From positions 72,604,001-72,668,000 of the forward strand of contig NC_087436.1 of NCBI RefSeq assembly GCF_036321535.1: 64,000 nt of DNA, in the 5' to 3' direction. Below are positions 3,445 to 63,519 of this stretch, in pieces. Source of the DNA: Camelus dromedarius. Taxonomy: Eukaryota. Position 1 is the first letter of the stretch. Each line of letters opens with the position of its first letter. Below the pieces are notes generated by a model, which saw nothing but the letters and a program-made list of their open reading frames with translations, had not been told where the DNA came from and made no database searches. The translations under genes were made by a program, and so were the position numbers.

Positions 3445-3531
3445 GTTTCCACCTTCTACAAGCAGTGCTCAGTACAACAGTGATTCCTTCATGTATCCCA
3501 GGAGAGTCCAAAGATAACTGCACAGCTTTAG
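3445..3531 (+). CDS. EREG: Epiregulin exon 2 (87 bp; signal peptide end and pro-region, (G)FHLLQAVLSTTVIPSCIPGESKDNCTAL)
   Basis: AG acceptor at 3443-3444 and GTAAGC donor at 3532. The manual translation matches proepiregulin. Phase is compatible with exon 3. Confidence 0.96.
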
Positions 3532-4483
3532 GTAAGCCCAGATTTGTCGGTGTTGCATCAAAGAATTACACGTTCTTAGCAGAAATGTAAACTCAAAGAC
3601 TATAAATACATGATAGTGGGGAAAAAAGGAGGGGATAACAGAAGAATTGTTAAAACGTCCCCCCTCCAACGAACTAGTGATCTGAAAAAATTATATAAAG
3701 GAATAACCAGAGGCAGAAGGACTGAACATCTAGTTATATATAAAGATTTGATTTTAAAGAGGTAAGGAACAAAGAAAATCAGCACTCTCTAGAGGTTTGG
3801 TCTTCCTCCCTTCCTTTTTTTGGTTATTTAAACAAGAGTATTACATTCAAGATGCTTTGTTCAAGATGCTTTGTGTGACTGTTTCACAAGCATATTTCAC
3901 ATTTTAATATCTAAAACATTCTAAGTTGAATTTTATGTGTAGGTTGCAACATTATTCTAAAGAGGCTCCTGCTTTTATTGCTGTATTTATGTAGCCAAGG
4001 CGTTTGTAACTCACGTCAGGTCTCATCTTTAGAGATGTTGAGAGACTTTGATTGATTTCCCAAACCTCAAAAGATTGGGAACGCACACAGAGATAAGCTT
4101 TGCTGGCTTAAAACCCACTATAGAATTAAGCTTTCTTAAATTAATTAATGGATTCAGCCTGCCATTGCTTTTGGAGTAATGTCAGGATTATTTTGAGATT
4201 TGAAAAAATCACCCTGACTTTGTCTGGATAAGTGAATAACTGTGATTTTTGTGTATATGTCTTAAACTTACCTTTTCGATCCTTAAAGGTTGTCTTTTGG
4301 GAATTATATCCCCAGGTTTTATATTGTTTTGTTTAGTCTGTTGGACAGTTTTTAGGGGGTCAGATGTGTGTTTATTGGTAATCACAGTGACTTCCTAGTC
4401 CTGAAAATACCTGACTGGCTTTGTTATAGCAGCTCAGTGGTTACTATTATGAAAGGGTTATTACTACTTTAAAGAAAGCAACA

Positions 4484-5346
4484 CTGCTGCACTTTGGTGC
4501 AGCCATTGTGGAAAACAGTATGGAGATTCCTCAAAAGACTAGGAATAGACTTACCGTATGACCCAGGAATCCCACTCCTGGGCATATATCCAGAAGGAAC
4601 CCTACTTCAAAATGACACCTGCACCCCAATGTTCATAGCAGCACTATTTACAATAGCCAAGACATGGAAACAGCCTAAATGTCCATCAACAGATGACTGG
4701 ATAAAGAAGATGTGGTGTATTTATACAATGGAATACTATTTAGCCATAAAAACCGACAACACAACACCATTTGCAGCAACATGGATGTCCCTGGAGAATG
4801 TCATTCTAAGTGAAGTAAGCCAGAAAGAGAAAGAAAAATACTATATGAGATCGCTCATATGTGGAATCTAAAAAAAAAACCAAAACATAAATGCAAAACA
4901 GAAATAGACTCATAGACATAGAATACAAACTTGTGGTTGCCAAGGGGGTGGAGGGTGGGAAGGGACAGACTAGGATTTCAAAATGTAGAATAGATAAACA
5001 AGATTATACTGCATAGCACAGGGAAATATATACAAGATCTGTGGTAGCTCACAGCGAAAAAAAATGTGACAATGAATATATGTATGTTCATGTATAACTG
5101 AAAAATTGTGCTCTACACTGGAATTTGACACAACATTGTAAAATGACTATAACTAAATTAAAAAAAATAAAAATAAAAATAAAAAATGACCTATCAAAAG
5201 AGCTGGTAAGTGCATCAGGATATGTTTCAAGAACATTTGTTAATGAAATTCATAATCAGAATAGTAAAAACATATAATGAAACTATTACTATTACTGTAA
5301 TTTTTTTCTTCACATTAAATAAATTTATATATATTCATATAAAAAA
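4484..5346 (+). mobile_element. Young 5'-truncated LINE-1 (ORF2 C-terminus, 3'UTR, A-tail, 3' transduction) in EREG intron 2
   Basis: ORF 4494-4871 ([13 protein letters not shown]...QPKCPSTDDWIKKMW) is an uninterrupted L1 ORF2p C-terminus. A perfect 13-bp target-site duplication (TSD) AAAGAAAGCAACA lies at 4471-4483 and 5347-5359, at a TTT/AAAG endonuclease-type site. Confidence 0.95.
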
Positions 5347-5390
5347 AAAGAAAGCAACAGAACTTACTTAACTTTCCATTTCTTTTACAG

Positions 5391-5514
5391 TTCAGACAGA
5401 GGACAATCCACGTGTGGCTCAGGTGTCAATCACAAAATGTAGCTCTGATATGAATGGCTACTGTTTGCATGGACAGTGCATCTACCTGGTAGACATGAGT
5501 GAAAATTACTGCAG
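5391..5514 (+). CDS. EREG: Epiregulin exon 3 (124 bp; first part of EGF domain, VQTEDNPRVAQVSITKCSSDMNGYCLHGQCIYLVDMSENYCR)
   Basis: Polypyrimidine tract ending TTTTACAG and GTAATA donor. It contains the mature N-terminus VSITKC and EGF cysteines 1-4. Confidence 0.98.
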
Positions 5515-6292: not shown

Positions 6293-7229
6293 GTAAGCCA
6301 GCATTTTCTTTTTTTTTTTTTAACGTTCTACTTTTGTAAATTACATTTATACAATACATTACAAATTTGATAAAAATATGGCAAAGCATTATTTAGTGGG
6401 ATAAGACAGACTCTGCATTGATGATATTTGTAAAGAAGTTTTAGCAGCCGAATGTCTGGATTTGACTATATTATTGGCTCTGTTATTTATTATCTCTGTG
6501 ACTTTATGCAAGTCAAACTGGGAGTATCAATTCCTTTCTCTACAAAATACAGATGGAAATCCTTATCCTTAATGACAGAACTGCTTTCAGTATTGAATAT
6601 AACACATGTGAAAGTAAACTGTAAGGCACCATGCCAATGTTAAACTTAGTCACTTGTATTTAATTTAGTAGGTCAAATTTTGTACTTCATAAAACACGTT
6701 TTATAAATCAATAACCCCGAGGCTTAAGATTTTGAAATTTAAGGCAGACTAGTAGAAATGAGTTTCCAGGTAATTATAAAAGTTTAATTTTAAAAACTGG
6801 TTTGTGTCAGTCCCCAGAACCTCCATCTTCATCACTCCATCTTCAGGTACAATATTGTACTGACATATGCTGATAACTGATAGAATATAGAGTGGGCACT
6901 GAAATACCGACAGTCCATCGGATTGTCAGTTTTTTAGGATTAGGACCAGGATTTGGGAACAGTGTGACTTAATTAATAATAACTGCCTGTAAAATGTCTC
7001 CATGAAATCCTTCTTATTTTGGAACTGACACAAATGTTTTAGGGTAGGTTTGAGTGAATTTTATTTTATTTTTTGCTGAAAGTAATGCACCTTTACTTTG
7101 AAAGCCTGAAAGTGTGCTGTTATTACAAGATTAAATTTATTTTGCCCATGTTTGATTCTAAGTATTCATCAAATGATAATGCCTTTTTAAATTAGTTATA
7201 GTCACAGAACTGCATATTATCAAAACTGA

Positions 7230-15230: not shown

Positions 15231-15987
15231 TATTTTTAGTGGATGATGAAGGTGGAAGTTAGATTGCTCTAGATGAAAGGAGTTGGTGGTGGCTGCTGGG
15301 AGAGAATCCTTATCTAGGATCTTGACTGTGAAAGAGAATGGAAATGACAAGCTCTCAAGTGTTCAATAATCATATAAATTTTTTTATTTACCAGATCCTA
15401 TGCTTTTCTCTTTGGCCTCTTCTGTAATCATGAGAATCAATAGTTACAGTTGGCATCAGGGAGGAGCTTAAAATTATTGGTATAAAATGAAAGTTGGGGA
15501 TCACCAATGGGTTTCAGTTCTTCCAGTCGCCTCTGGCACTCATAGCACAGGTAACTGAGAGTTGGCTCTCATCCCGAGTTTCAGGAAAGGGACCAATGCA
15601 TGTGAGTCATGTGCTTACATAAGATGCAGTCTAGATTATAGTAGGAGAATCTGGCTGTGGAAATATAAATAAGCCCCTTATCACTGGGTAGGGCCTCTTT
15701 ATAAAACATGGGTTGGACTACCAACCAGAAAGCTTAACTGAAGAGCATACACTCAGCTGTACTGAGAATATATTCCCCCTCCAATGCATGTGATGGCTCC
15801 TGATCTGTTGGTTGTGTTGTATAACTCACAAATCATGAGTAGGCGATTTCAGGTTAATGGATACAATCATAGCTGACGTCTCAGAGGTAACAATCTGCTC
15901 TCTTTGACGTAACAAGACTGGGAAACTTAATAAGGGCTTGTAGTTGAAATAAAGTGCCACATTATAGCATTGTTTCTGCCTTTTACA

Positions 15988-16383
15988 TTTTTTAAAATTG
16001 AAGTATAGTTGAGTTACAAGTTGTGTTAATTTCTAGTGTACAGCATAGTGATTCAATTATAGGGGTTATTATACTAAATAAGTCAGACAGAAAAAGGCAA
16101 ATATCATATGATATCACTTATATGTGGAATCCAAAAAAATGACACAAATGAACTTATTTACAAAATAGAGACAAACTCACAGATCTAGAAAACAAACCTA
16201 TGGTTACCAGAGGGGAAAGGAAGTGGGGTGGGGAGGGATAAATTAAGAGTCTGGGATTGGCAGATACAAACTACTATACATAGACTAGATAAACAGCAGG
16301 GTCCCACTGTATAGCACGGGGAACTATATTCAAAAGCTTGCAATACCCTATAATGAAAAAGAATATAAAAAAGAAGAGATATG
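15988..16383 (-). mobile_element. L1 3'UTR insertion with internal inversion (twin priming)
   Basis: 15988-16061 is the extreme L1 3' end on the minus strand, and 16062-16383 is the adjacent upstream L1 segment on the plus strand. A degenerate TSD TCTGC(C)TTTTA lies at 15975-15985 and 16384-16393. Confidence 0.8.
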
Positions 16384-32339: not shown

Positions 32340-33750
32340 CCCTGACCTCAGTTTAATGAGTTTTTGACATGGACAATACATACACGCAGCCATCACCCAA
32401 AGCCAGATATAAAATGTTTTTATTAGCCCCAGAAAGTTCCTTAGTCTATTTTCCAATCAATTCACCCCTCCCCCTGCTCCTAAAGTATCTACTTTCTGAA
32501 TTATGCCCCTGTACCTTAATTTTGCCTATTCTTGGACCTCATAAAATTGAAACAGTACAATATTTAAGCTTTTTTGTCTGGCTGCTTTCCCTTAATAAAA
32601 TGCTTTTGAGGTTCATCCGTGTTATTGTATGTATCACTCTTCTTTATTGTTGAGTATTTTTCTACAACACCAATATACCACCATTTGCATATCTATTCTT
32701 CTGTTGATGGACATGGGTTGTTTCCTGTTGGGGCAATTATAAATATGATTGCTCTGAACAACCTTCAGCTCTCTTCAGCAAATACATAGAAGTGGATTTG
32801 CTAGGTCATAATTGAGAAGTGTATTTAGCTTTATTAAAAACTGCCAAAGAGTTTTCTGAAGTAGTTACACCATTTCATACTCCCACTGGCAATACAGGAG
32901 AGATCTTGTTCGTCTTCATCATTACCAACATTTTGTGTTGTCAGTCTTCTATTTTAGCCATTCTGAAGAGTGTGAAATGGTATTTTACTGTGATTTTCAT
33001 TTCCTTGACAACTAATGATACTGAGTACTTTCTCATTCACATATTCTTTGTGTAATGCCTTTTCAAGTTTTTGCCTATTATTTTATTGGGTTGTTCATTT
33101 TTGTATGGTCAGTTTGACTGAATTCTTTACATAATACAGATACAAACTCTTCATCAGATATATGTATGATAAATACATTTTCTAGTCTGTGGCTTGTCTA
33201 TTCAGTTTCTTAATAGTGACTTTTGAGACTCAGAAAATTTGAAGTCCAAAATATCATTTTTTTTCTTTTATGGTTTAATGTTTTTATGTCCTGTCCAGAA
33301 AGTCTTTGCCTACACCAAAGTCTTAAACATATTTTCATACATTTTTTTTAGAACAGCACAGTGTAATAGAACTTTCAATGATTGAGCATTCTGCCTCAGA
33401 TGCACCATCCAACACTGTGGCTTCTAGGCATATCAAGCTATTCAGCAATTTATATGTGCCTACTATGGCTGAGAAAATGATTTTTAAATTTTATTTAATT
33501 TAAATAGATACAGCTAGTGACAACCATAGTAGACAGAGCAATTCAAGAAGTTTTAAGGCTCTGGGTTTTACATTTAGATCAAAGATGAGCTAGAATTAAT
33601 TTTATGTAATGAGTTAGGAGTCATAGTTTGTTTCCATATGGATACATGGATATCCAGTTGTTACAGTCATGTTTATTACAAATACTTTCCTGCTTCAATT
33701 GACTTGGCACCTTGGTGGAAAGTCAGTTGACTGTGTAAGTATGGATGAAA
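32340..33750 (-). mobile_element. Ancient L1M fragment with a nested MER3-like DNA transposon (~33354-33540)
   Basis: Antisense L1 3'/ORF2 motifs (ATTCTTCTGTTGATGGACAT; ATTTTAGCCATTCTG; GATATCCAGTTG). The MER3-like insert reads AATAGAACTTTC…TTTTAAATTTTATTTAATTT…GCTAGTG. Confidence 0.75.
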
Positions 33751-34279: not shown

Positions 34280-34940
34280 TATTATTTTATTGAATTTTTA
34301 TTGAATTTTTTTAATATTCATCGTGTTTTACCTTAGATTCCCGGAGCTTGTTCATCTTATAACTGAAAGTTTGTACCCTTTGACCAACATCTTCCCATTT
34401 CTTCCATTCCCCTCAACCCAGCAACCACCATTCTACTCTGCTTCTTTTTGAGTTTGTCTTTTTACATTTCATATAGAAGTTAAATTGTACAGTATTTGTC
34501 TTTCTCTGTCTGACTTATTCTACTTTATATATTATATTATATATTATATATAATATATATATAAAATCTCACATTTTCTTTATCCATTCATCCATCAGTG
34601 GACACTTAAGTTGTTTCCATGTCTTGGCTGTGGTGAGTAATGCTGAAATGAACATGGGGTACAGATTTCTCTTGGAAATAGTGATTCTATTTCCTTTGGA
34701 TATACACCCAGATATGGGATTGTTAAATTAAGTAGTTTTATTTTCAATTTTTTGAGGAACCTCCATGCTATTTTCCCTGATGGCTATACCAATTTACGTC
34801 TCCTGCAGCAGTGTGAAAGCACTCCCTTTTCTCCACATTCTCAACAATACTTCTCACATCTTTTTGATACCAGCCATTTTAACAGCTGTGAGGTGATACC
34901 TGGTTGCAACTTTAATTTGCATTTCCTTGATGATTAGTGA
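34280..34940 (-). mobile_element. L1MA-type 3' fragment with internal (TA)n
   Basis: TTCATCTTATAACTGAAAGTTTGTACCCTTTGACCAACATC and TTATCCATTCATCCATCAGTGGACACTTA motifs. Confidence 0.8.
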
Positions 34941-36796
34941 TATTCTGTATTTAGATAAATGTATGTACTAAAGAAGAATAAAGAGTGTAAGCCCCCCTAA
35001 TTGTTAGATCGTCTCCATCAAGAGTCAAGGAATCCTTTTTTTTTTTTTTTTGACTAATTATCATCTCCATCAACACCTTAGCCAAAAGCTTAAGCTTCCT
35101 CTCTGATAATGTCAAAGAATTTTAAAAGTTTACTGCAGAATTCTATGAAGATTGGTTAAATCTTTTAACCAGAGTTAAGTATCATACTTGTCTGAATTTT
35201 GTCTTTTCTGATGTCCTTTGTTCATCACTTTGACACTGTGATAAAAGTTCTGGTTTTAAAGGTTCTAGTGCTCTAGCACAAGAACATTTTCCAGGTCACA
35301 GTAAGGAAAAGAAACCAGTTCGCAGAGTACGTAATGAGTCCCCAAGTTACTAAGAGCTGATAGTAATAAATTAAGAATAGCGTGTAACTCACTTCCAGAT
35401 TGTTGGTGTTCGCTCTACCGTGCTGACAACAGGGAAAGTAAACAGTCAACAAAAAGCTCATGACTCAGACGTCGTGCATGGTATGTTTATAGAAAGCCAA
35501 GCCTGGCTCTTTCTTTGTATCCCACGTAGTTCCTCTTAGGCTGAGTTTCTTTTGATGTAAATTAAAGCTTTGTAATGGAAATGCATTAAGAAACGTGTAG
35601 AGGAAAACAGTAATGTGATGATCAATGATTTAAATAACAATCATTTGGGGAAAAAAATCATCATGCCTGATTAGAAATCTATTTCAAATGATTTCCTAAC
35701 ATAATGAAGGTGACAGTCAATTATATTGAGACTAGGAAATGGATACCAAGTGTTCTCTCTTTTTTAACACTTCTCTTGTACCATTACATACATATCATAA
35801 ATATGCTTTTGTTTGTATAAAATATTTGATGATAAAAATGCATCATCACACATTTCCCATTTAAAAATGCATCAAGGAACTTAAATGCTGACCTGCATTT
35901 CATTGGCTGCGCTATTAAGCTTTTTTACTTATTGCACTAACAATTCAGTTCAAATTACAGCTGGAAAACGTAAATTTACTTACTCCTATTAAAAGAAAAT
36001 GCAAATTTTCTTTTTGATTTAAAAGCAATAACTAAAATCCATAACCAGATGTCCTAAGAGAAAAATCCTAAAAGCTTTCACAGAGACAAATGAGAGGTAT
36101 CCTAAAAGAAGTGAGCGGCAGACTGAGGACGCTGAACCTGCCGGCAGCAATGCTGAGCATTAGAAGGTAGTGAAGCAGTGACTATAAGGTTTGGAGCAGA
36201 ACTATTTTGAAACTAGAATTTGATTTGTAGTCAACTATCAGCAAAATGTAGAAGAAAATACATTTTAAGATAGATAAGAACTTGGACTACTAACATCCCA
36301 CACACCCGATGTCAGAAAGTTTATCTGAGGAGATACTCCAGGGAAAGAAAAAACTAAATGGGGAGAAGAGGAAGGAGCATGATATATGGTTCAAGAAAGA
36401 GTAGCAGCTGACTGCAACCCACAAGAAGAGAAGGAAACTAAAGACACTTGAGATAGCCAGAGATGCTAGGAAGATTCTCCTTTGAGTGACAAAATTTAAA
36501 TGACATTTGTTTCTCTATAGATGCAATATATCGCTCAGTTCTAGAATGCCACAAGTGCTATGTATTTTCAATCTTAAAATTATCTAATAAAAAAGCCAAC
36601 TGACACTGATTATAGTAATAACGTAAGACCTCAAAGTTATAAGGTAAGGTTAATGTAGTAACCATTAGAAGGAGACTAGGAAGTGAAAAAGCATAAAGAG
36701 AAGAAGTGAAAAAGAGTAAAGTGAACTTGTTTCTATTTTTCATTTGAAAGGAGTCAGTATTCCCTATGAAAAGTCAATAAATCCAAGACAATATTT

Positions 36797-36978
36797 GTTT
36801 GTTTGTTTTTTATTGAAGTATAATACGTCAGTTTATAATGTCAATTTCTGGCACACAGCATAATGTTTCAGTCATACGTACACATACAAATACTCATTTT
36901 CATATTCTTTTCCATTGTGGATTACTACGAGATATTGAATATAGTTCCTTGTGCTATACAGAAGAAACTTGTTGTTTA
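36797..36978 (-). mobile_element. Short L1 3' end inserted beside older L1-like sequence (~36050-36750, +)
   Basis: (TTGT)n tail and TTTTATTGAAGTATA terminus. A diverged 13-bp TSD reads CAAGACAATATTT (36784-36796) and CAAAACAATGTTT (36979-36991). Confidence 0.75.
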
Positions 36979-47300: not shown

Positions 47301-48345
47301 CAGGACAGAAACCCTAAGAGACAACAATGCTTTTTTTTTTTTTTTCCTTTCTTCCTCAAGTCAAGAAAAAATCAGTTCTGGAGTTGTCTCTACATCAAAG
47401 TTGGTCATGTTAAGCAGTTCTTTCCCCCTCTCACGATCAAAAAGCCCTACTAGGTTCTAAATGGGCCCTAACAGCTGGCCCTTTCATCTTGGGATTCAAG
47501 AGGCACGGAGTTGGGCACCACCCTCCATCCAAATGCTAATACGCCACCAGTAGAGATGATTCCTTTAGGATGAATATTATTCTCCCCAGACACTCTTTTC
47601 AAAGAGAAGTTTAGCATAAACCCCTTTCATTAGAGAGAACAGAGATTTTAGAGTCAGAAAAACTTGAAGTGAAATCCATCTGGCTTCTGCCGCGACCAGC
47701 TGTGTGAAGTCCTCCTTGCTTTGTAAAGCTGACATTGGTCCCTCTCGTAAGACAGTTTGGAAAATAGTACTTTCCTAGCAAGATTTTTGAATGAGATGGA
47801 GTAGCTAGAGTGTACAGTTTGGCAACAATACATGCTCAATTAGTATTAGTTTTGATGAGGGCTTAGGACCACGTAAAGAATGGGAAGAGAGGAGGTTGAA
47901 AATTCTAGCCACGTCACAGTAGTTGACGGGAAAGGACCCTGGGTTGAGACAGGGGCCGGTGATAAATAAAGCAGCGTCTCATTAGGAGGCGCGCGCTCCA
48001 GTCATTTAGTGACCTTCTTTATCCTTGTTAAAGACATCGGGCTATCACTGCTAAGTCACTCTTGGTTTTAAAGTACTTTTACATCTTACTACGAAACTTT
48101 TCTAGTTAATCCCTGCCGTAGTATTAAGATCAACCAAAGCCTATTCGGAGGATTTCCGGATAGTATGGGATTTTTAATGTTAGATACTAGCGCCCAAACC
48201 CAACTCCCGCCCTCGAATGTGGATCTGGTATTTTTTCAGCTTGCAGTGAGGGAACTTTCATTTCCTCCCAGCGGTTCCCGTGTGTGGTTTTGGGGTAGTA
48301 ACCCCTCCCGGGGCGGCCGCCCGCCTCCACCCACCTCGCCGGCCG

Positions 48346-48390
48346 CCGTGACGTCACGGGCGATGCCTGGGTCCCCGCCCGGCCTATAAA
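48346..48390 (+). promoter_or_regulatory. AREG: AREG core promoter: full CRE TGACGTCA (48349-48356), GC box (48373-48380), TATAAA (48385-48390); TSS ~48415
   Basis: All motifs are directly visible. AREG is an established cAMP/CREB-responsive gene. The TSS is inferred from TATA spacing. Confidence 0.9.
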
Positions 48391-48603
48391 GCGGCAGGTG
48401 CGCGCCGCGCCTGCGGAATGTTCGCACACCTTGTGCCCGCGCCGGAGTCGGAGCCCAGGGATCCCGCGGCGAGCCCGGCCGGGCCTGCGAGCACAGCCGC
48501 TCGGTCCCCCCCGTCCCAGCTCCCCGCCGCCACGTCCTCCTCCCGCCCGCAGCTCCCGGCAGAGTTGCCCCAGAGACCGCGACGCCGCCTCTCCGAGGGA
48601 CCA

Positions 48604-48664
48604 ATGAGAGCCCCGCCGCTGCCGTCGGCGCCCGTGGTGCTGTCGCTCTTGATCCTCGGCTCAG
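48604..48664 (+). CDS. AREG: Amphiregulin exon 1 coding part (signal peptide MRAPPLPSAPVVLSLLILGS)
   Basis: ATG at 48604 and CAG/GTGAGG donor; matches the AREG signal peptide. Confidence 0.97.
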
Positions 48665-49157
48665 GTGAGGACATCCCGGCTCTGACCTGCCGGGCGCCTC
48701 TCCCACCGCGGGCAAAACGGTCACCTTGAATTCTGCTGCTGTTTCTCCCAAAACCCGCTCTTGGGAGGCGACCCCAGCTCTGTCCCGCGGGAGGTGGTCA
48801 CGGTGGCTCCCTCAATATAGTTAGTTACTCCCTGGGAGGAAGAGAAAAGCGTGCAGGTGTTTGAGATGTGCCGGGCCAGCAAGAGGATGCCGTAGAATCC
48901 TTGTATTTTTACTTTAGTCCAGATGAAGGAGAACCTAGAGATCCTGTGATCCAAACCCTTCGTTTTACAGGTAAAGAAACCGAAGCCAGAGAGGTGTAGT
49001 GATTTCCTCAGATCCTGGAGCAGCGTAGTTAAGTCCTGGACCGAGGAGCGCAGCCTCCTGCCTAAATTCTCCATCTCCTCTGTCAAGTGATTTTGTTTTT
49101 ACCTTTCTGGAGGTCCTCGCATCATCACAGGGAGAAGTTAAAAGCATCACTCTAGGG

Positions 49158-49158
<1 letters not shown>

Positions 49159-49190
<32 letters not shown>
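49159..49190. repeat. Pure T32 homopolymer in AREG intron 1
   Basis: Directly visible. Confidence 0.95.
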
Positions 49191-49195
<5 letters not shown>

Positions 49196-49787
49196 CCTTG
49201 ATAAAGCAGGGGCTTGAAACTTTGACCCCCAAATTTTAACCTAGTCTGTAATTTTCTTCTCTGTGTGAGAACAATAAGAAACAATGGCAATAAGAACAAT
49301 TATTGTCAACTACTATTTATATCACTTTTTACATTTTATATAGCTATTCTTTTTAAAATGTGAGCACGTATTAAGAAAATTTGGTATTTATCTTTGGAAT
49401 CTGTTTATTAAAATGGGACAGGTAGCATTACAGCAAACGCAAAAGCGTTTGGTATGTGACATGATGGCAATGTTTAGACATTGCCTGTTAAGTAATTATA
49501 TAAAATTAATTTGCCTATTTGGCAGTATTTTTTGATGTGGAGATTAATGTAGACTATCTGTGAAGAAGAAAACCTTAATGAAAGAAGCTCTGTAATTGGA
49601 ACAGCTGAGTTTGCTTGTTGGCAAAATGTGATGTTGGTTTCGTAAGTGACTCAGTCACCAACAATAGCACATGTGCAATAATTGCTTTGATATTAGAAGG
49701 TAAACAGTTCTCCCGAATGCAACTGACTGGTGAGAAAAGGCATTCTCCCTTACCTTTGCTTTTCTTCCCTTGTTCTTGCTCCTACAG

Positions 49788-50036
49788 CCTATTATGCTGC
49801 TGGACTGGACGTCAATGAAACTTACTCTGGGAAAGGGGAACCACTTTCTGGGGACCACAGTGCTGATGGATTTAATGTTACCTCAAGAAGTGACGTGTCC
49901 TGGGGGAGTGAGATTTCTCCCGTGAGTGAAATGCCTCCTGGTAGCGAACTGTCCTCAGGGATCGACTATGACTATGCAGACGAGTACGATAATGAACAAC
50001 AGATGTCTGGCTATATCGTGGATGATTCCGTCAGAG
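49788..50036 (+). CDS. AREG: Amphiregulin exon 2 (249 bp; acidic pro-region to …GYIVDDSVR)
   Basis: Long pyrimidine tract ending CTACAG and GTGAGT donor. The translation lies within ORF 49730-50044. Confidence 0.98.
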
Positions 50037-52629
50037 GTGAGTAGAGGGTAGGGTAGTGATGTAGCCAGTGAGCAAAGCTGCTTCAAAAGGAAATCTTTTT
50101 TCCCAGTCTTCTGGTGGCTTTTTGTGTGTATGACTGTTGTGTACCCTGCTAGGTAAGCTACGAACTGAGATGGAAAGAGCTACTTGTGGCACACCTTGTA
50201 TGTATGGAGCTCTAACAAACGTTTTAGGTCTATGAAGTGTAATCTTAACAACAACGTTATGAAGTAGGAATTGTCATTTCACAGATGTGATAAGTGAAGC
50301 TCAAAAGGGGTAAATGTTCTGCCCAGAGTTCCACAGCCGGCCAGCAGCTGAGCCAGAGTGAGAACTCTAGTCTGTTTGCTTCGAGTTACTATGTGCTTTC
50401 CCACTGTGCCACATGACCCCCATTCTGAGAAGTGGACGTAGACCAGTCCTGTCTACTTTGTATCTCAGCTCTTACGTCCACCTCCCCACCACGTTTCCCT
50501 AAATAACTGCATTTTAACACAAAACAAGGGAATAGAAAGAAGTAATGCGAAAAGAACGATTGGACCTTAGCCTTTAAGTATTAGGTGCTGAGAAATCGGT
50601 GATAATAATAGCAATACCACTTTCGGGAAATATAAAAGAAGGATAAATATGCCTGGATTTTACATTGCTAAAAATCACTATTTAACTAGCTCAGTAATAG
50701 TGACCCACACTTTTCTTCTCCTTTGCTATTATCTGATCTTTAAAAAAGAGCATTTGCTTAAAATGAAGGTACCAAAGTAAGGGGCCACATTGTTCATCAC
50801 CCTCATATCACTTTGTAGTCTGAGAGAAGATGGGGTCATCAGTAAATCAGACCTAGATATCCCAGGAGCATCTAGCATCGAGGCAGGAAGCAAGGCTGTC
50901 CTTTCTTGGCCTTAGTTTCCCTGTCTCCTCCCACTCTGTCTGGCTCCCAGAACTGGTGAAGAGATAACGGGTGATACCACAGGGACAGTGCCTGGATGAA
51001 GTGGCAGTTGGGAAGAACTTTAGCAAACATTCCACTTTCCTCCCTTGCATCGGAATTCTGCTTTTACGTAAGGTGGGGAAGGACCCATCTATAATTCTTA
51101 GTTTGGGGGGATGAGATTAGGCTGTCAAGGCTCTAGAATCTGTTCCCTTAAAGATGTTTCAAGTTGTTAACATTTCAAAAGGCCAAATAAATTTTTGATG
51201 GTGCGAATGGCTGGTGCCTAGAATTGCAGTGCGTTGTGAAACAGAGTGAAAGGTAAGCCTTGGGGTTAATGTCTATTGCAGCACGTTAGCGTAGTGACTG
51301 TATGTCTCTAAAATTTGCACTGTATCCGACAAAGTGCAGTAATATTGACTTACAATGTTTCTGTTAGAGGACTTATCCCAACTTCTGGTACTTTTTTATC
51401 ATCAGAAGAAAATTTCAATATAAAAATTGCAGCTCAAAAGGATTAAATGTTCTGCCCAATCTACCACCTATTAAACATTGCTCCTAATTTGACTGCTGTT
51501 ATAATAACTACTAAAATATTCATAATATGTGTCATTTCCTTAATCACAGGGTTCTATCTTTGATACCCTTCCCTATGTTTCTAGTGTCTTCTATCTAATA
51601 TGTGCTGCAGGACCATTATAACTAATTGTATTATGACATTATGATATTTTCCTCTTTTCACTGGCTCTACTAAATACTTGCTCAGATAATTCCATACAGG
51701 GATTAGTAGAACAAAATGCACAGCTCTAACATGGAAACTCCTCCTCCTACTACTTAGCGTGTGGGTAGGCTATATCCTGCGTAACTAAAACACTGAGCAA
51801 AGGTGTCTGTGGATCTGAAGAGTTAAGATGAATTTCTGAAGCATTAAGCACAAATATTTCTGGACCCCTATTTTTTCAAATAGATTGATCACAGAAATGA
51901 GCTCCCTGGAAGATATCAGTCAACTATAATCTGTTGTAATCTGGGAGTTGGAGAAAATTGATGAACGCTAATATATAATTCTCAGTTTCCTCCACCTCAA
52001 GTAATACACACTAATTCCCAATTATGATAGTGAGCACAAGACTGACATGAATAAATAAAATCATCAAATATACTCAAGTCCCACTTTAATTAATGGCACT
52101 GACCTTTTCCAAGAGAAAACATAGTCAGTAGGGAAATTATTGGCTTTCACATCCCAGCTATGCCATTTTCTAGCTACATGTCCTAGGGCAAGTTACTAGT
52201 CTTCACTCAACTTCATTTTTCTCATTTGTATCATCTGGATGGTAATAACACATCCAACCTTGGTTTGGGTTTAATTAAATTATTGCTCATTACCAAGAAC
52301 TTGGATATATTAGAAATTCAAGAAGTTTTTAAAATATTCAATGAATTTTCTTAACCAAGTATCTTCTATTATCAATAATAATACTGATATAAATAAATTA
52401 AAGACATGTTTCTACATTTATACAACAAAAGGGTTCAGATTTTTAAGTGCCACACAATATATTCTCTTTTTTCATCCTTTGTTGTGTATGAATTGTGTTG
52501 AATAATGAGGCCAATATGACTCTTCTCCCCATTAGCTTCTCACTGGTAGGACTTCTTTCCCTCATGTCTCCAAAATGGTATTCAAGATGAAGAGAGACTG
52601 TGGTCAATAAATCTCTCTCTTTTTTTCAG

Positions 52630-59969: not shown

Positions 59970-62900
59970 ACAATCAGAAAAAATTTTAAAGGATAACAAA
60001 AACTGTTGTATGTTTGGATATTGCACATTATAAAAATCTACTGAGTTAAAAATTATCTTAATGAAAATTACAAAATACTTAGAACTGAATGAAAATGTTT
60101 TATTTGTCAAAATTTATGACACTCAGTTAAAATAGTACTTAATAGACAGTTTGTAGATTTAAACATATTTATCAGAAATAAGAAAAGCTTAAAAAGGAAA
60201 AAAACTTAAGCTATGTATTAAACTCAAAATTTAGAAAAAGATCAATTGAATAAACCTAAGGAAATAGGAATAAAAATATTTACATAGGGCAGAAATAAAT
60301 GATAAAGATAATTGAATAACAAAGCCAATAGGCTATTCTTTGGAAAAATTAATAAGATAGATCTGTGTTAAAACTGATCAAAATAAAGAGACAATACATT
60401 AAAAAACATAGACAGAAAAAGGAGAAATACCTACAGGAAAAACAGATTTTAAAAGTAAGAAAAAAAGAGAAAGAGTATTAGAATTCACATTCATAAATAA
60501 ATTTTAGTAGCTTAAAGAGACATCACTTTCTCTAATAAATGACATAGAAAAGTATGATACTCTAAGTTTGCTTAATTCAACTGTCCAATAGTAATATTAA
60601 ATATCCAGGTCCTTTCCCTCCTGCTACTGTTCTATCCTCATGGTTGCAAGATGGCACTAATATATAAAAACCCAAGATGTAATGGATAAATGTCTACAAA
60701 AGTACCAAAAATGTGAAAAATGTTTAATAGTAAAAATAAAAAACTTAAACCAATAAGTAATAAAAAATGGAGTGATCAGAGCTCATATCCCCACCCACCC
60801 AAAGAGAAACCGAACCCATATGACTTTATAGTTGTTCAGAATATAGAGAAAGAGTGAAATCTGCCCAGCTTAATGTATGATGCTAGTGCCAATTTGTACA
60901 ACAGCAACATAAGGAAAAAAAATATGGGCACATTTTACTTATGAGCATAAATGTGAAAATTCACAAGTATATTCTTAAAATTACATTATGAGAGTAGAGC
61001 TTTTACCAGAAATGCAAGGAAAGTTCAACATAAGAAAGTATATCATTGTTATATAAAATAGAGTTTAAAAATTAGACTTTTTTTATTATACAAGATAGAG
61101 TTCAAAAGTGTTTTCTTATTAAAGGCAGAGAAAGCCTTTAAGTGCAAAATTTACTTATAATCTAAAATATTTTAAAACTAGGAATAGGACACTTCTTGTG
61201 TTTGATAAAAGCTGTATACTAAAATAAACAGCTGAATTTATACTTAGTAGCAAATCTATAGATGCTTTCCCTTTAAGATTAAGAATGAGGCAAGGATGCC
61301 CATTATGAAACAGCACAAAAATTCTTACTAAAATTGAAAGAAAATAAGTAAACATAAGAGATATAAGAATTTGTAAGAAATATGTGTCCCTGTTTGCAGA
61401 TAATATGATAATCTATCTAGAATAGCCAATACAATCAGTATGCCAACTATTAGAATTTGTAAGATAATTCCTTGAGATTGTCAGATATAATTATAAAATT
61501 CCAAAATTAATAGTACTTTCCAATGACAATTTATCTGAATCTTAAAAGATAAAATAGTATTCATATTTGCTAAAAAACTGTAAGATATACATGTATTGAA
61601 AATGAATACATGAGATTTCATTTAAGAAAAACGTGGATACCTCTTAAAGAAAACAAAGAAATCTGTCATGGATAAATACTCCTTTCTCTTAGACTGTAGA
61701 CTGTGAACAGGTTAATTCTCTTTCTGAACAATCTTTAAATTCAACAGAATGCTAATCAAAATTCCAAATGGGTCATTTGAAGAACTTCATATACCCTATT
61801 CTGTAATTCACATAAGAAAAGAAGTCTGAGAAAATTTGCCATTTTGGGGAAAAAAAGCAAAACAAGAAATCTTTTATATAAAGACATATACAAAGTAAAG
61901 TAGTAAAAGAGTGTGACTCTAGAGTAAGCATGGACAAAGGACTAATGGAACAACACAGCTCAGGGACAATTTATAGCATGATAAAGAGAGCACTATAAAT
62001 TAATAGGGAAAAAATGACTGCTTAGCAAATACTGTAGAGAAAAGAGTCTCAGAACGTGGAGAAGAATAAAATTGGAGGATTACCTTATATCATAGTCAAA
62101 GGTGAATCTCATGAAGATTAAATATCCAAATGTGAAATATAACACTGTAAAGTTAATACAAAATGATGCAGGAAAATATCCTTGTGAGTTAAGATTGAGG
62201 AAGGATTTAAGTAAAACCTCACAATTAAAAACAATGCAGAGAAAAATGAACTATTTTTTTGATTACGTCAAAATTAGGAAGTTTGGTTAAAAGAAGAATG
62301 TCATGGACAAATTTTACAGACAGTTGACAGAATGGAGAACTATGCAATGTCTAATGCCAAAAAGGGATTATGATATGTAAGGAATGACACAAAAATCAAC
62401 ATGAAAATGCAGGACCTTCAGCTTAAAAGGGGGAAAGTTTATGAGCAAGGAATTCCTAGAATGTGAAACCTAAGTGAGTAACAACCATGTTATTTGGACT
62501 AGTACTGTCCCAGATGTTGCTTTGCTGAGAATTAGCAAAAGTCAGCCTTTCCTCCAGACAGCTATTGTCCCAGGCCAGGCCAGGACACACAGCGTGGGTA
62601 TGGGCTGGAGCTCAGCTCCCACTCGCATTCTTGATTGGATGCTCTTTTGTAAGTACCTTGCACTCATCTGTATATCATGGCCCTGAATATAAAGAAATGT
62701 TCAAACTTACTGGAAATGGCAGAAATACAAATCAAAAACACAATAGAATATCTCTTTATGCCTGTCAGATTTGCAAAAATAGAAAGATGAATAATTTTTG
62801 CAGAAGCTTGTGGACATAGAGACCCTTAAACATTACTGGTTGGAGGTTAGCCTAGAACTGCCATTTGGGTAGTACTTAATCAAATTAAAAATAAATATGT

Positions 62901-63300
62901 CCTATTACCCAGAGTGAACATATTCCTAAGACATATAGGCCCACAAAGGGACGTGCATGAGGATGTTCACTGCTGTGTTGTTTATGATAGTGGAGAATTA
63001 GACGTAATCTAGCTGTTGACTACCTAATAAGGCAAAATCAAATGTGGTGGGTACACACTGCAGAACACAATGCAGCCATTAGAAACAAATGAGGTACACT
63101 CATAGTAGTATAGGCAGATTTTGTTTTAAACATAAAATTTTTAAAAGGTAGTGCTGAAGCAGATACGACATAAACTAAGACAATTTACAATTCCTTACTT
63201 TAATTAAATACACATTTTACAAATGTCACAAATTATATTAATTAAATAACACTTGTGTTTATTAAATATAAAAACTCACGTAATATATTAGAATGGTTGT
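59970..63300 (+). mobile_element. Highly degraded ancient L1M ORF2/3'UTR with small nested insertions (~60490-60660, ~62480-62680)
   Basis: A-rich sequence with colinear L1 ORF2 motifs (AAATACTTAGAACTGAATGAAAATG; CCAGAAATGCAAGGA…TTCAACAT; GCTTTCCCTTTAAGATT…GCAAGGATGCC; CTGTTTGCAGATAATATGAT). No long ORF remains. Confidence 0.8.
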
Positions 63301-63519
63301 AACAGTGAGGGAAAGGTGACCAATAGGAGTTGGGAAGTTGTGGGGAAGGTATTAAGAATTAACTAATTAAAACAATGGGAGGTCTAACTGAGAAGCATAT
63401 TTAATTCAGTCCTGTGCACCCAAGTTCAAGAAAAAAAAAAGAAACTGAAAAAAATATGCATAAAACGATGATAGGTGAAGGTAATAAATATGAGACTTAA
63501 ATTATGATTAAATTATGGG

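Follow-up and report, generated by a model that had tools for sequence, protein, structure and literature searches.

A Truncated L1 with a Probable Partnered 3′ Transduction in an Intron of EREG in the Dromedary

An intron of EREG in Camelus dromedarius contains one insert of 863 bp, which lies between two exons of the gene and is bracketed by an exact 13-bp duplication (4471–4483 and 5347–5359; all positions are those of the window, that is, the whole stretch of 64,000 nt that was analysed). The insertion is real, and it is probably a transduction, which would make it one more case of a common and well-known event. The best-fitting reading, and in our judgement a likely one, is that of a single L1 retrotransposition with a partnered 3′ transduction. 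Transcription of a source L1 located elsewhere in the genome would have run on through the 3′ end and the aged A-tail of that element into some 154 nt of flanking DNA, and the spacing suggests that the RNA was cut and polyadenylated 17–21 nt after the ATTAAA/AATAAA of that flank. ORF2p would then have nicked the CTTT/AA that is observed in the EREG intron, and would have gone on to copy the poly(A) and the tag, then the old tail, and lastly 676 nt of the L1 before stopping, which would have led to the 13-bp duplication; the enzymatic steps are those of known L1 biology, while the duplication and the order of the parts are observed. The new tail may later have been shortened to six A’s.

Anatomy of the Insert and Its Target Site

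Partnered L1 3′ transduction was reportedly described by Moran in 1999 and by Goodier and Pickeral in 2000. Its anatomy, as given in PMC4859970, consists of an L1, an A-tract, unique DNA, a poly(A) signal, a second A-tract, and the target site duplication (TSD). This is the order of the parts found here, with a single TSD pair that encloses both the L1 and the tag:

4471–4483, + strand: 5′ copy of the 13-bp TSD (exact pair in the window; CTTT/AA on the rebuilt bottom strand)
4484–5159, + strand: 5′-truncated L1 of 676 nt, comprising the end of ORF2 (stop at 4869–4871) and the 3′ UTR, oriented like EREG (open frame, ORF2p match)
5160–5186, + strand: first A-tract, A8-T-A5-T-A5-T-A6, with three AATAAA (5166, 5172, and 5178), read from the sequence
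5187–5340, + strand: 154-bp non-L1 tag of 22.7% GC, which may have flanked the source L1 on its 3′ side (not repeated in the window; unmatched in Rfam, Pfam, PDB, and the protein searches)
5203–5211, + strand: putative splice-donor-like CTG/GTAAGT, with a would-be exon end at 5205, 185 nt ahead of the EREG acceptor and 19 nt into the tag
5314–5323, + strand: overlapping ATTAAA (5314–5319) and AATAAA (5318–5323), at distances of 21 and 17 nt from the second A-run downstream
5341–5346, + strand: second A-run, six A’s outside the TSD (nine, 5341–5349, if the first three of the TSD are counted)
5347–5359, + strand: 3′ copy of the 13-bp TSD, ending 31 nt before the splice acceptor and leaving intact the branch-point-like words at 5363 and 5368

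The L1 was recognized by its frame. The stretch 4473–4871 is free of stops and matches residues 1146–1273 of human L1 ORF2p (E 3e-50 in a PDB search), so 4484–5159 is the 3′ end of an L1 that is truncated on its 5′ side. With its frame still open after 132 codons, the copy would seem to be rather young. At its 3′ end, the element is intact, its 3′ UTR aligning with older copies in the window up to the tail. A Pfam search missed both the ORF2 end and the exon with the EGF domain (see below), which the PDB search recognized.

The TSD, AAAGAAAGCAACA, has exactly two occurrences in the window of 64 kb, and none of 100 dinucleotide shuffles had two matches. In a null of the same geometry, a common word of at least 13 nt was present in 2 of 1455 random pairs from the window. 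The rebuilt target has CTTT/AA on the bottom strand, which is a site of the L1 endonuclease (EN) type; the tables of PMC4859970 include CTTT/AA among the EN sites of L1 and Alu insertions. With a single TSD copy and no insert, the intron would measure about 983 nt. Directly downstream of the first tail, no word of at least 6 nt from the 5′ junction recurs, and the L1 is thus without a TSD of its own that would exclude the tag. The preliminary description had placed the 3′ copy of the 13-bp TSD only after the second A-run and had seen the L1 3′ UTR end in an A-rich tail at 5160–5186; both statements proved correct, the exact pair and the patterned tract being where they had been located. The second A-run, unlike the patterned first tail, is pure. 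The first A-tract may well go back to the source L1, as a tail that was encoded in the genome and had aged there, and a patterned tail followed by a pure one would fit an aged source tail and then a new one.

Other traces of L1 are present in the window. Older fragments at 34446–34792, 36791–36973, 15981–16333, and 32672–32760 are 71–75% identical to the inserted L1, the third having pieces on both strands. At 7184–7204, a 21-nt inverted match (20/21; E 0.003 within the window) to the end of the L1 3′ UTR and the start of its tail (5144–5164) is either a tiny L1 remnant or due to chance. An A-rich stretch at 60000–63400 looks, by eye, like a very old and decayed L1.

The Tag, Its Poly(A) Signals, and the Donor-Like Site

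The 154-bp segment, its ATTAAA/AATAAA at 5314–5323, and the A-run that begins 17 nt later at 5341 were found just as first described. The left edge of the tag is uncertain by several bases and lies somewhere in 5181–5188. Its length is ordinary since human transductions range from 8 to 997 bp, with a median of 63, among 268 high-confidence events (PMC9311842). The tag has no second copy in the window, where its best other match is a 40-nt AT-repeat; it belongs to no Rfam family, and the frames searched have no match in Pfam, in PDB, or in two large protein sets. Open frames that cross the ends of the tag, sought because they might expose a different flank, gave no match in the protein searches. 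Exact-pattern scans detected the tag at 0 loci in contigs of metagenomes, prokaryote genomes, and viruses, and the L1 3′ end at 0 loci in metagenomes; as a mammal of this kind is not to be expected in such collections, these negatives carry no information. A local tandem duplication of the flank as the origin of the tag was rejected: in six comparisons, 108–279 of 300 shuffles scored as high.

The earlier statement that the segment is unlike L1 stands with respect to the window’s own older L1 copies, to which the comparison is limited and which do not match it. Two of them on the minus strand, with 3′ ends at 36973–36791 and 16061–15981, align with the insert as far as the tail and then pass into unrelated DNA. 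When the tag was compared with the sequence after these two ends, 182/300 and 267/300 shuffles scored as high; as these copies are 72–75% identical, the comparison is no test of the 3′ end of a young subfamily. Two further regions of the window have short matches only and no downstream similarity to the tag (108/300 and 119/300 shuffles as high).

A poly(A) signal in front of an A-run is, on its own, modest evidence since a hexamer lies 10–30 nt upstream of 114 of the 735 GC-matched positions in the window (15.5%; 443/9115 for random positions). Among runs of at least nine A’s in the window, 3 of 27 have such a signal upstream, and the run at 5341 is one of these three. For known transduction ends, PMC13009371 gives a signal at this distance in 274 of 349 cases. 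The spacing at the end of the tag is, therefore, roughly five-fold enriched in known transduction ends compared to GC-matched positions here.

In several respects, then, the insert is like the known partnered transductions: it has a 5′-truncated L1, an internal A-tract, a unique segment, a signal 10–30 nt before the second A-tract, one TSD pair, an EN-type site, a length within 8–997 bp, and an intronic target (introns account for 156 of the human L1 events in Table 6 of PMC9311842). It is unlike them in its very short second tail, of just six A’s outside the TSD, and in the rare donor-like site near the start of the tag, which is not predicted by the transduction model; both features count against transduction. 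Moreover, the host here is a camel and not a primate. The preliminary description regarded two tails within one TSD pair as the established signature of transduction. The anatomy is indeed present, and transduction is the best reading of it, but this signature designates a candidate rather than furnishing a proof: in one survey of such candidates, the source was unambiguous in both of the genomes compared for only 42 of 78 (PMC3024322), and gene retrocopies have been miscalled as transductions (PMC4862182).

A further point against transduction concerns the signals of the L1 itself. At its 3′ end, there is ATTAAA (5157) where one older copy in the window has AATAAA. The tail, however, contains canonical AATAAA three times, and all three would need to be bypassed under read-through. 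Bypass of canonical signals has been reported for transductions (PMC13009371). A speculative cause of the read-through would be the donor-like site itself, as it lies 19 nt after the last hexamer of the tail, about where cleavage falls: cleavage occurs around 20 nt after the signal, and U1 proteins can inhibit poly(A) polymerase (PMC10315857). In a literature search, no paper contained all five of the terms by which U1, L1, and read-through would be linked. Such a site would also be expected to dampen the signal some 110 nt further on, which counts against this idea.

The donor-like site has the top donor score in the insert, 10.7, compared to 7.9 and 8.9 for the neighbouring EREG donors, in an approximate matrix. 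With this matrix, and in a test made post hoc, scores as good or better were found at 6 of the 3275 GT sites of the + strand and in 9 of the 830 tiles of 154 nt. The bases before the site read DLSKEL in one frame, which is open to a double stop at 5275–5280. The site may be due to chance, or the tag may consist of the end of an exon and the start of an intron of an RNA that was cleaved at a signal within the intron.

Alternative Origins of the Tag

The proposal of an L1-mediated 3′ transduction, with which the preliminary description had begun, thus retains its supports in the single TSD pair, the EN-type site, the two A-tracts, and the spaced signal; on the other hand, the donor-like site and an 8-nt direct repeat also fit its rivals. 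One of these rivals starts from the donor-like site. A cellular RNA with its end at a poly(A) site within an intron would have offered its poly(A) for the start of reverse transcription, which would then have jumped to the tail of an L1 RNA through A-rich microhomology. In that case, the tag would comprise an exon end (5205), 135 nt of intron, and AATAAA, and it would mark a host gene and not a source L1. The rarity of the donor-like site by chance speaks for this, even if the site was spotted post hoc and scored with an approximate matrix, and the poly(A) signal with its A-run fits the 3′ end of an RNA. L1 does form chimeras with mRNAs, but 17 mRNA chimeras described in PMC13174262 were joined on the 5′ side of the L1 and not on the 3′ side; there is also the precedent of gene retrocopies mistaken for transductions (PMC4862182). 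The insert is like these chimeras and retrocopies in having non-L1 sequence with a feature resembling an exon border, an L1, one TSD pair, and a poly(A) end, and it is unlike the chimeras, which are joined at the 5′ end of the L1, in that the extra DNA is 3′ of the L1 and in that no parent gene was found. In addition, no protein was found that ends in the read-through frame of the tag (107 candidates, none of them scoring), which is weak evidence. On balance, an origin from a cellular RNA is unlikely.

Two other rivals make use of the 8-nt direct repeat ATAAAAAA, which flanks the tag at 5179–5186 and 5339–5346. According to one of them, there were two events: a plain L1 was inserted first, and a later retro-insertion (an orphan transduction or a truncated retrocopy) entered its A-tail and duplicated either ATAAAAAA or A6. 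A-tails are endonuclease targets, which counts in favour of this sequence of events. TTTT/AT, moreover, is a listed EN site (PMC4859970). Yet two insertions within 27 bp would be required, and ATAAAAAA as an inner TSD would leave the second insert wholly tailless. The repeat also consists mostly of A’s and would arise by chance in around 8–23% of A-runs: AT precedes 15 of the 177 runs of at least six A’s in the window and 6 of the 26 in an AT-rich context, both ATAAAAAA runs being included. Because AT so often precedes such runs, and because nesting deprives the inner insert of a tail, the repeat is weak evidence for any rival, and we consider two events to be very unlikely. A second proposal dispenses with an RNA step. 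A break in the L1 tail would have invaded another L1 3′ end, copied the tail and some 152 nt of its flank, and rejoined at ATAAAAAA, so that the second A-run would be templated. Templated insertion during break repair may mimic transduction, and it has in common with the present case the foreign DNA beside an L1 within the TSD pair of that L1 and the microhomology at the right junction; the 8-nt repeat sits where the rejoining would occur, and the second A-run is short. What such a patch does not share is the correctly spaced poly(A) signal and the A-run directly before the TSD, as from the end of an RNA; a signal at 17 nt is what an RNA end leads one to expect, as opposed to around 15% by chance. 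Transduction, which is found in 2.5–8.8% of the non-reference L1s of three primates (PMC4862182), is also far commoner. Repair of a break has, in our estimation, the same small probability as two events.

Still less probable is that the tag is an unrecognized repeat or that a young L1 subfamily has it as a fixed part of its 3′ end. This copy would then be an ordinary solo insertion, and any transduction would have occurred once, in the founder of the subfamily. In keeping with this, the 13 words sampled from the tag are all present in sequencing runs that bear the labels of two different organisms, although these entries are possibly sources of the same DNA. Against it, the two older L1 3′ ends of the window pass from the tail into unrelated DNA, as described above, and an L1-type 3′ end with its tail is complete before the tag starts. 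The search of sequencing runs has a further bearing on this question. Among the 24 runs listed, from 8 studies, 20 hold the tag wholly or partly, and 16 of these 20 possibly derive from the same DNA; as for the other four, the set of 13 words is complete in two (from one study), while the fraction is 0.77 in an RNA run and 0.46 in a further run. The tag is nearly missing from four runs; two of these are DNA runs of large size (1688 and 657 million letters), and their samples have other runs in which it is complete. Such near-empty runs would not be expected if the tag were an L1 end of high copy number, but they are no proof of absence.

The EREG Locus and the Meaning of the Insert

The exons that flank the insert were identified by their translations:

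3445–3531, + strand: EREG exon of 87 nt upstream of the insert (AG/GT borders; match to proepiregulin 5e8d, E 0.0014)
5391–5514, + strand: EREG exon of 124 nt, in which the EGF domain begins (match to proepiregulin 5e8d, E 2.7e-24)

We take them to be exons 2 and 3 of EREG, in the human numbering, and the intron to be intron 2. The original assignment of the insertion to intron 2 of EREG is, therefore, borne out as to the gene, the flanking exons matching proepiregulin, while the number of the intron comes from the human gene, exon 1 not having been located in the window. AG/GT borders are found in all three of the EREG exons that were examined. The intron before the 3445–3531 exon contains a perfect 61-bp tandem duplication (1325–1446), with two identical head-to-tail copies, which is either a recent duplication or an artefact of assembly.

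The insert, sense to EREG, does not reach the acceptor, from which it is separated by 31 nt, and it leaves both the branch-point-like words and the pyrimidine tract intact. It is for this reason most likely a dead passenger that would be removed by normal splicing. It does add six AATAAA/ATTAAA hexamers to the intron (5157, 5166, 5172, 5178, 5314, and 5318) along with the donor-like site. A crude scan for acceptors found none that was short-range and strong and that would give a cryptic exon of normal size with this donor-like site; the ten best upstream acceptors in the scan imply exons of 564–869 nt, and routine inclusion of such an exon would accordingly seem unlikely. A more consequential role is conceivable and has a very low probability: the tag might be the end of a host exon and the start of its intron, acquired either through a chimera of L1 5′ and mRNA 3′ parts or from an L1 lodged in an exon. 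The donor, 185 nt before the acceptor, and the two sets of poly(A) signals would then compete with the splicing of EREG, some transcripts would be made without the EGF domain, and the insert would act as a lineage-specific dial on epiregulin output.

The mechanism of partnered transduction has long been known and is common, and there is little to be learned from this case alone. Its importance would be greater only if epiregulin transcripts were altered by the donor-like site or the poly(A) signals, or if the tag proved to be derived from an mRNA. If it is a transduction, the 154-bp tag would be a barcode for one source L1 and for any sibling insertions, and it would help to map the L1 loci recently active in the lineage. 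The presence or absence of the insert would, in addition, provide a clean phylogenetic marker. In titles and the opening parts of abstracts, we found no published report of the insertion in the EREG intron, a locus that supplementary repeat tables might list. Nor did literature listings and PMC8605555 yield a catalogue of transductions for the camelid lineage; in the latter, a survey of camel repeats, transduction is mentioned once, as a general ability of L1.

Further downstream in the window, a GC-rich island extends over 48000–50050 (58.8% GC at 48001–49000). The open frame at 49727–50044 presumably belongs to amphiregulin, the usual neighbour of EREG.
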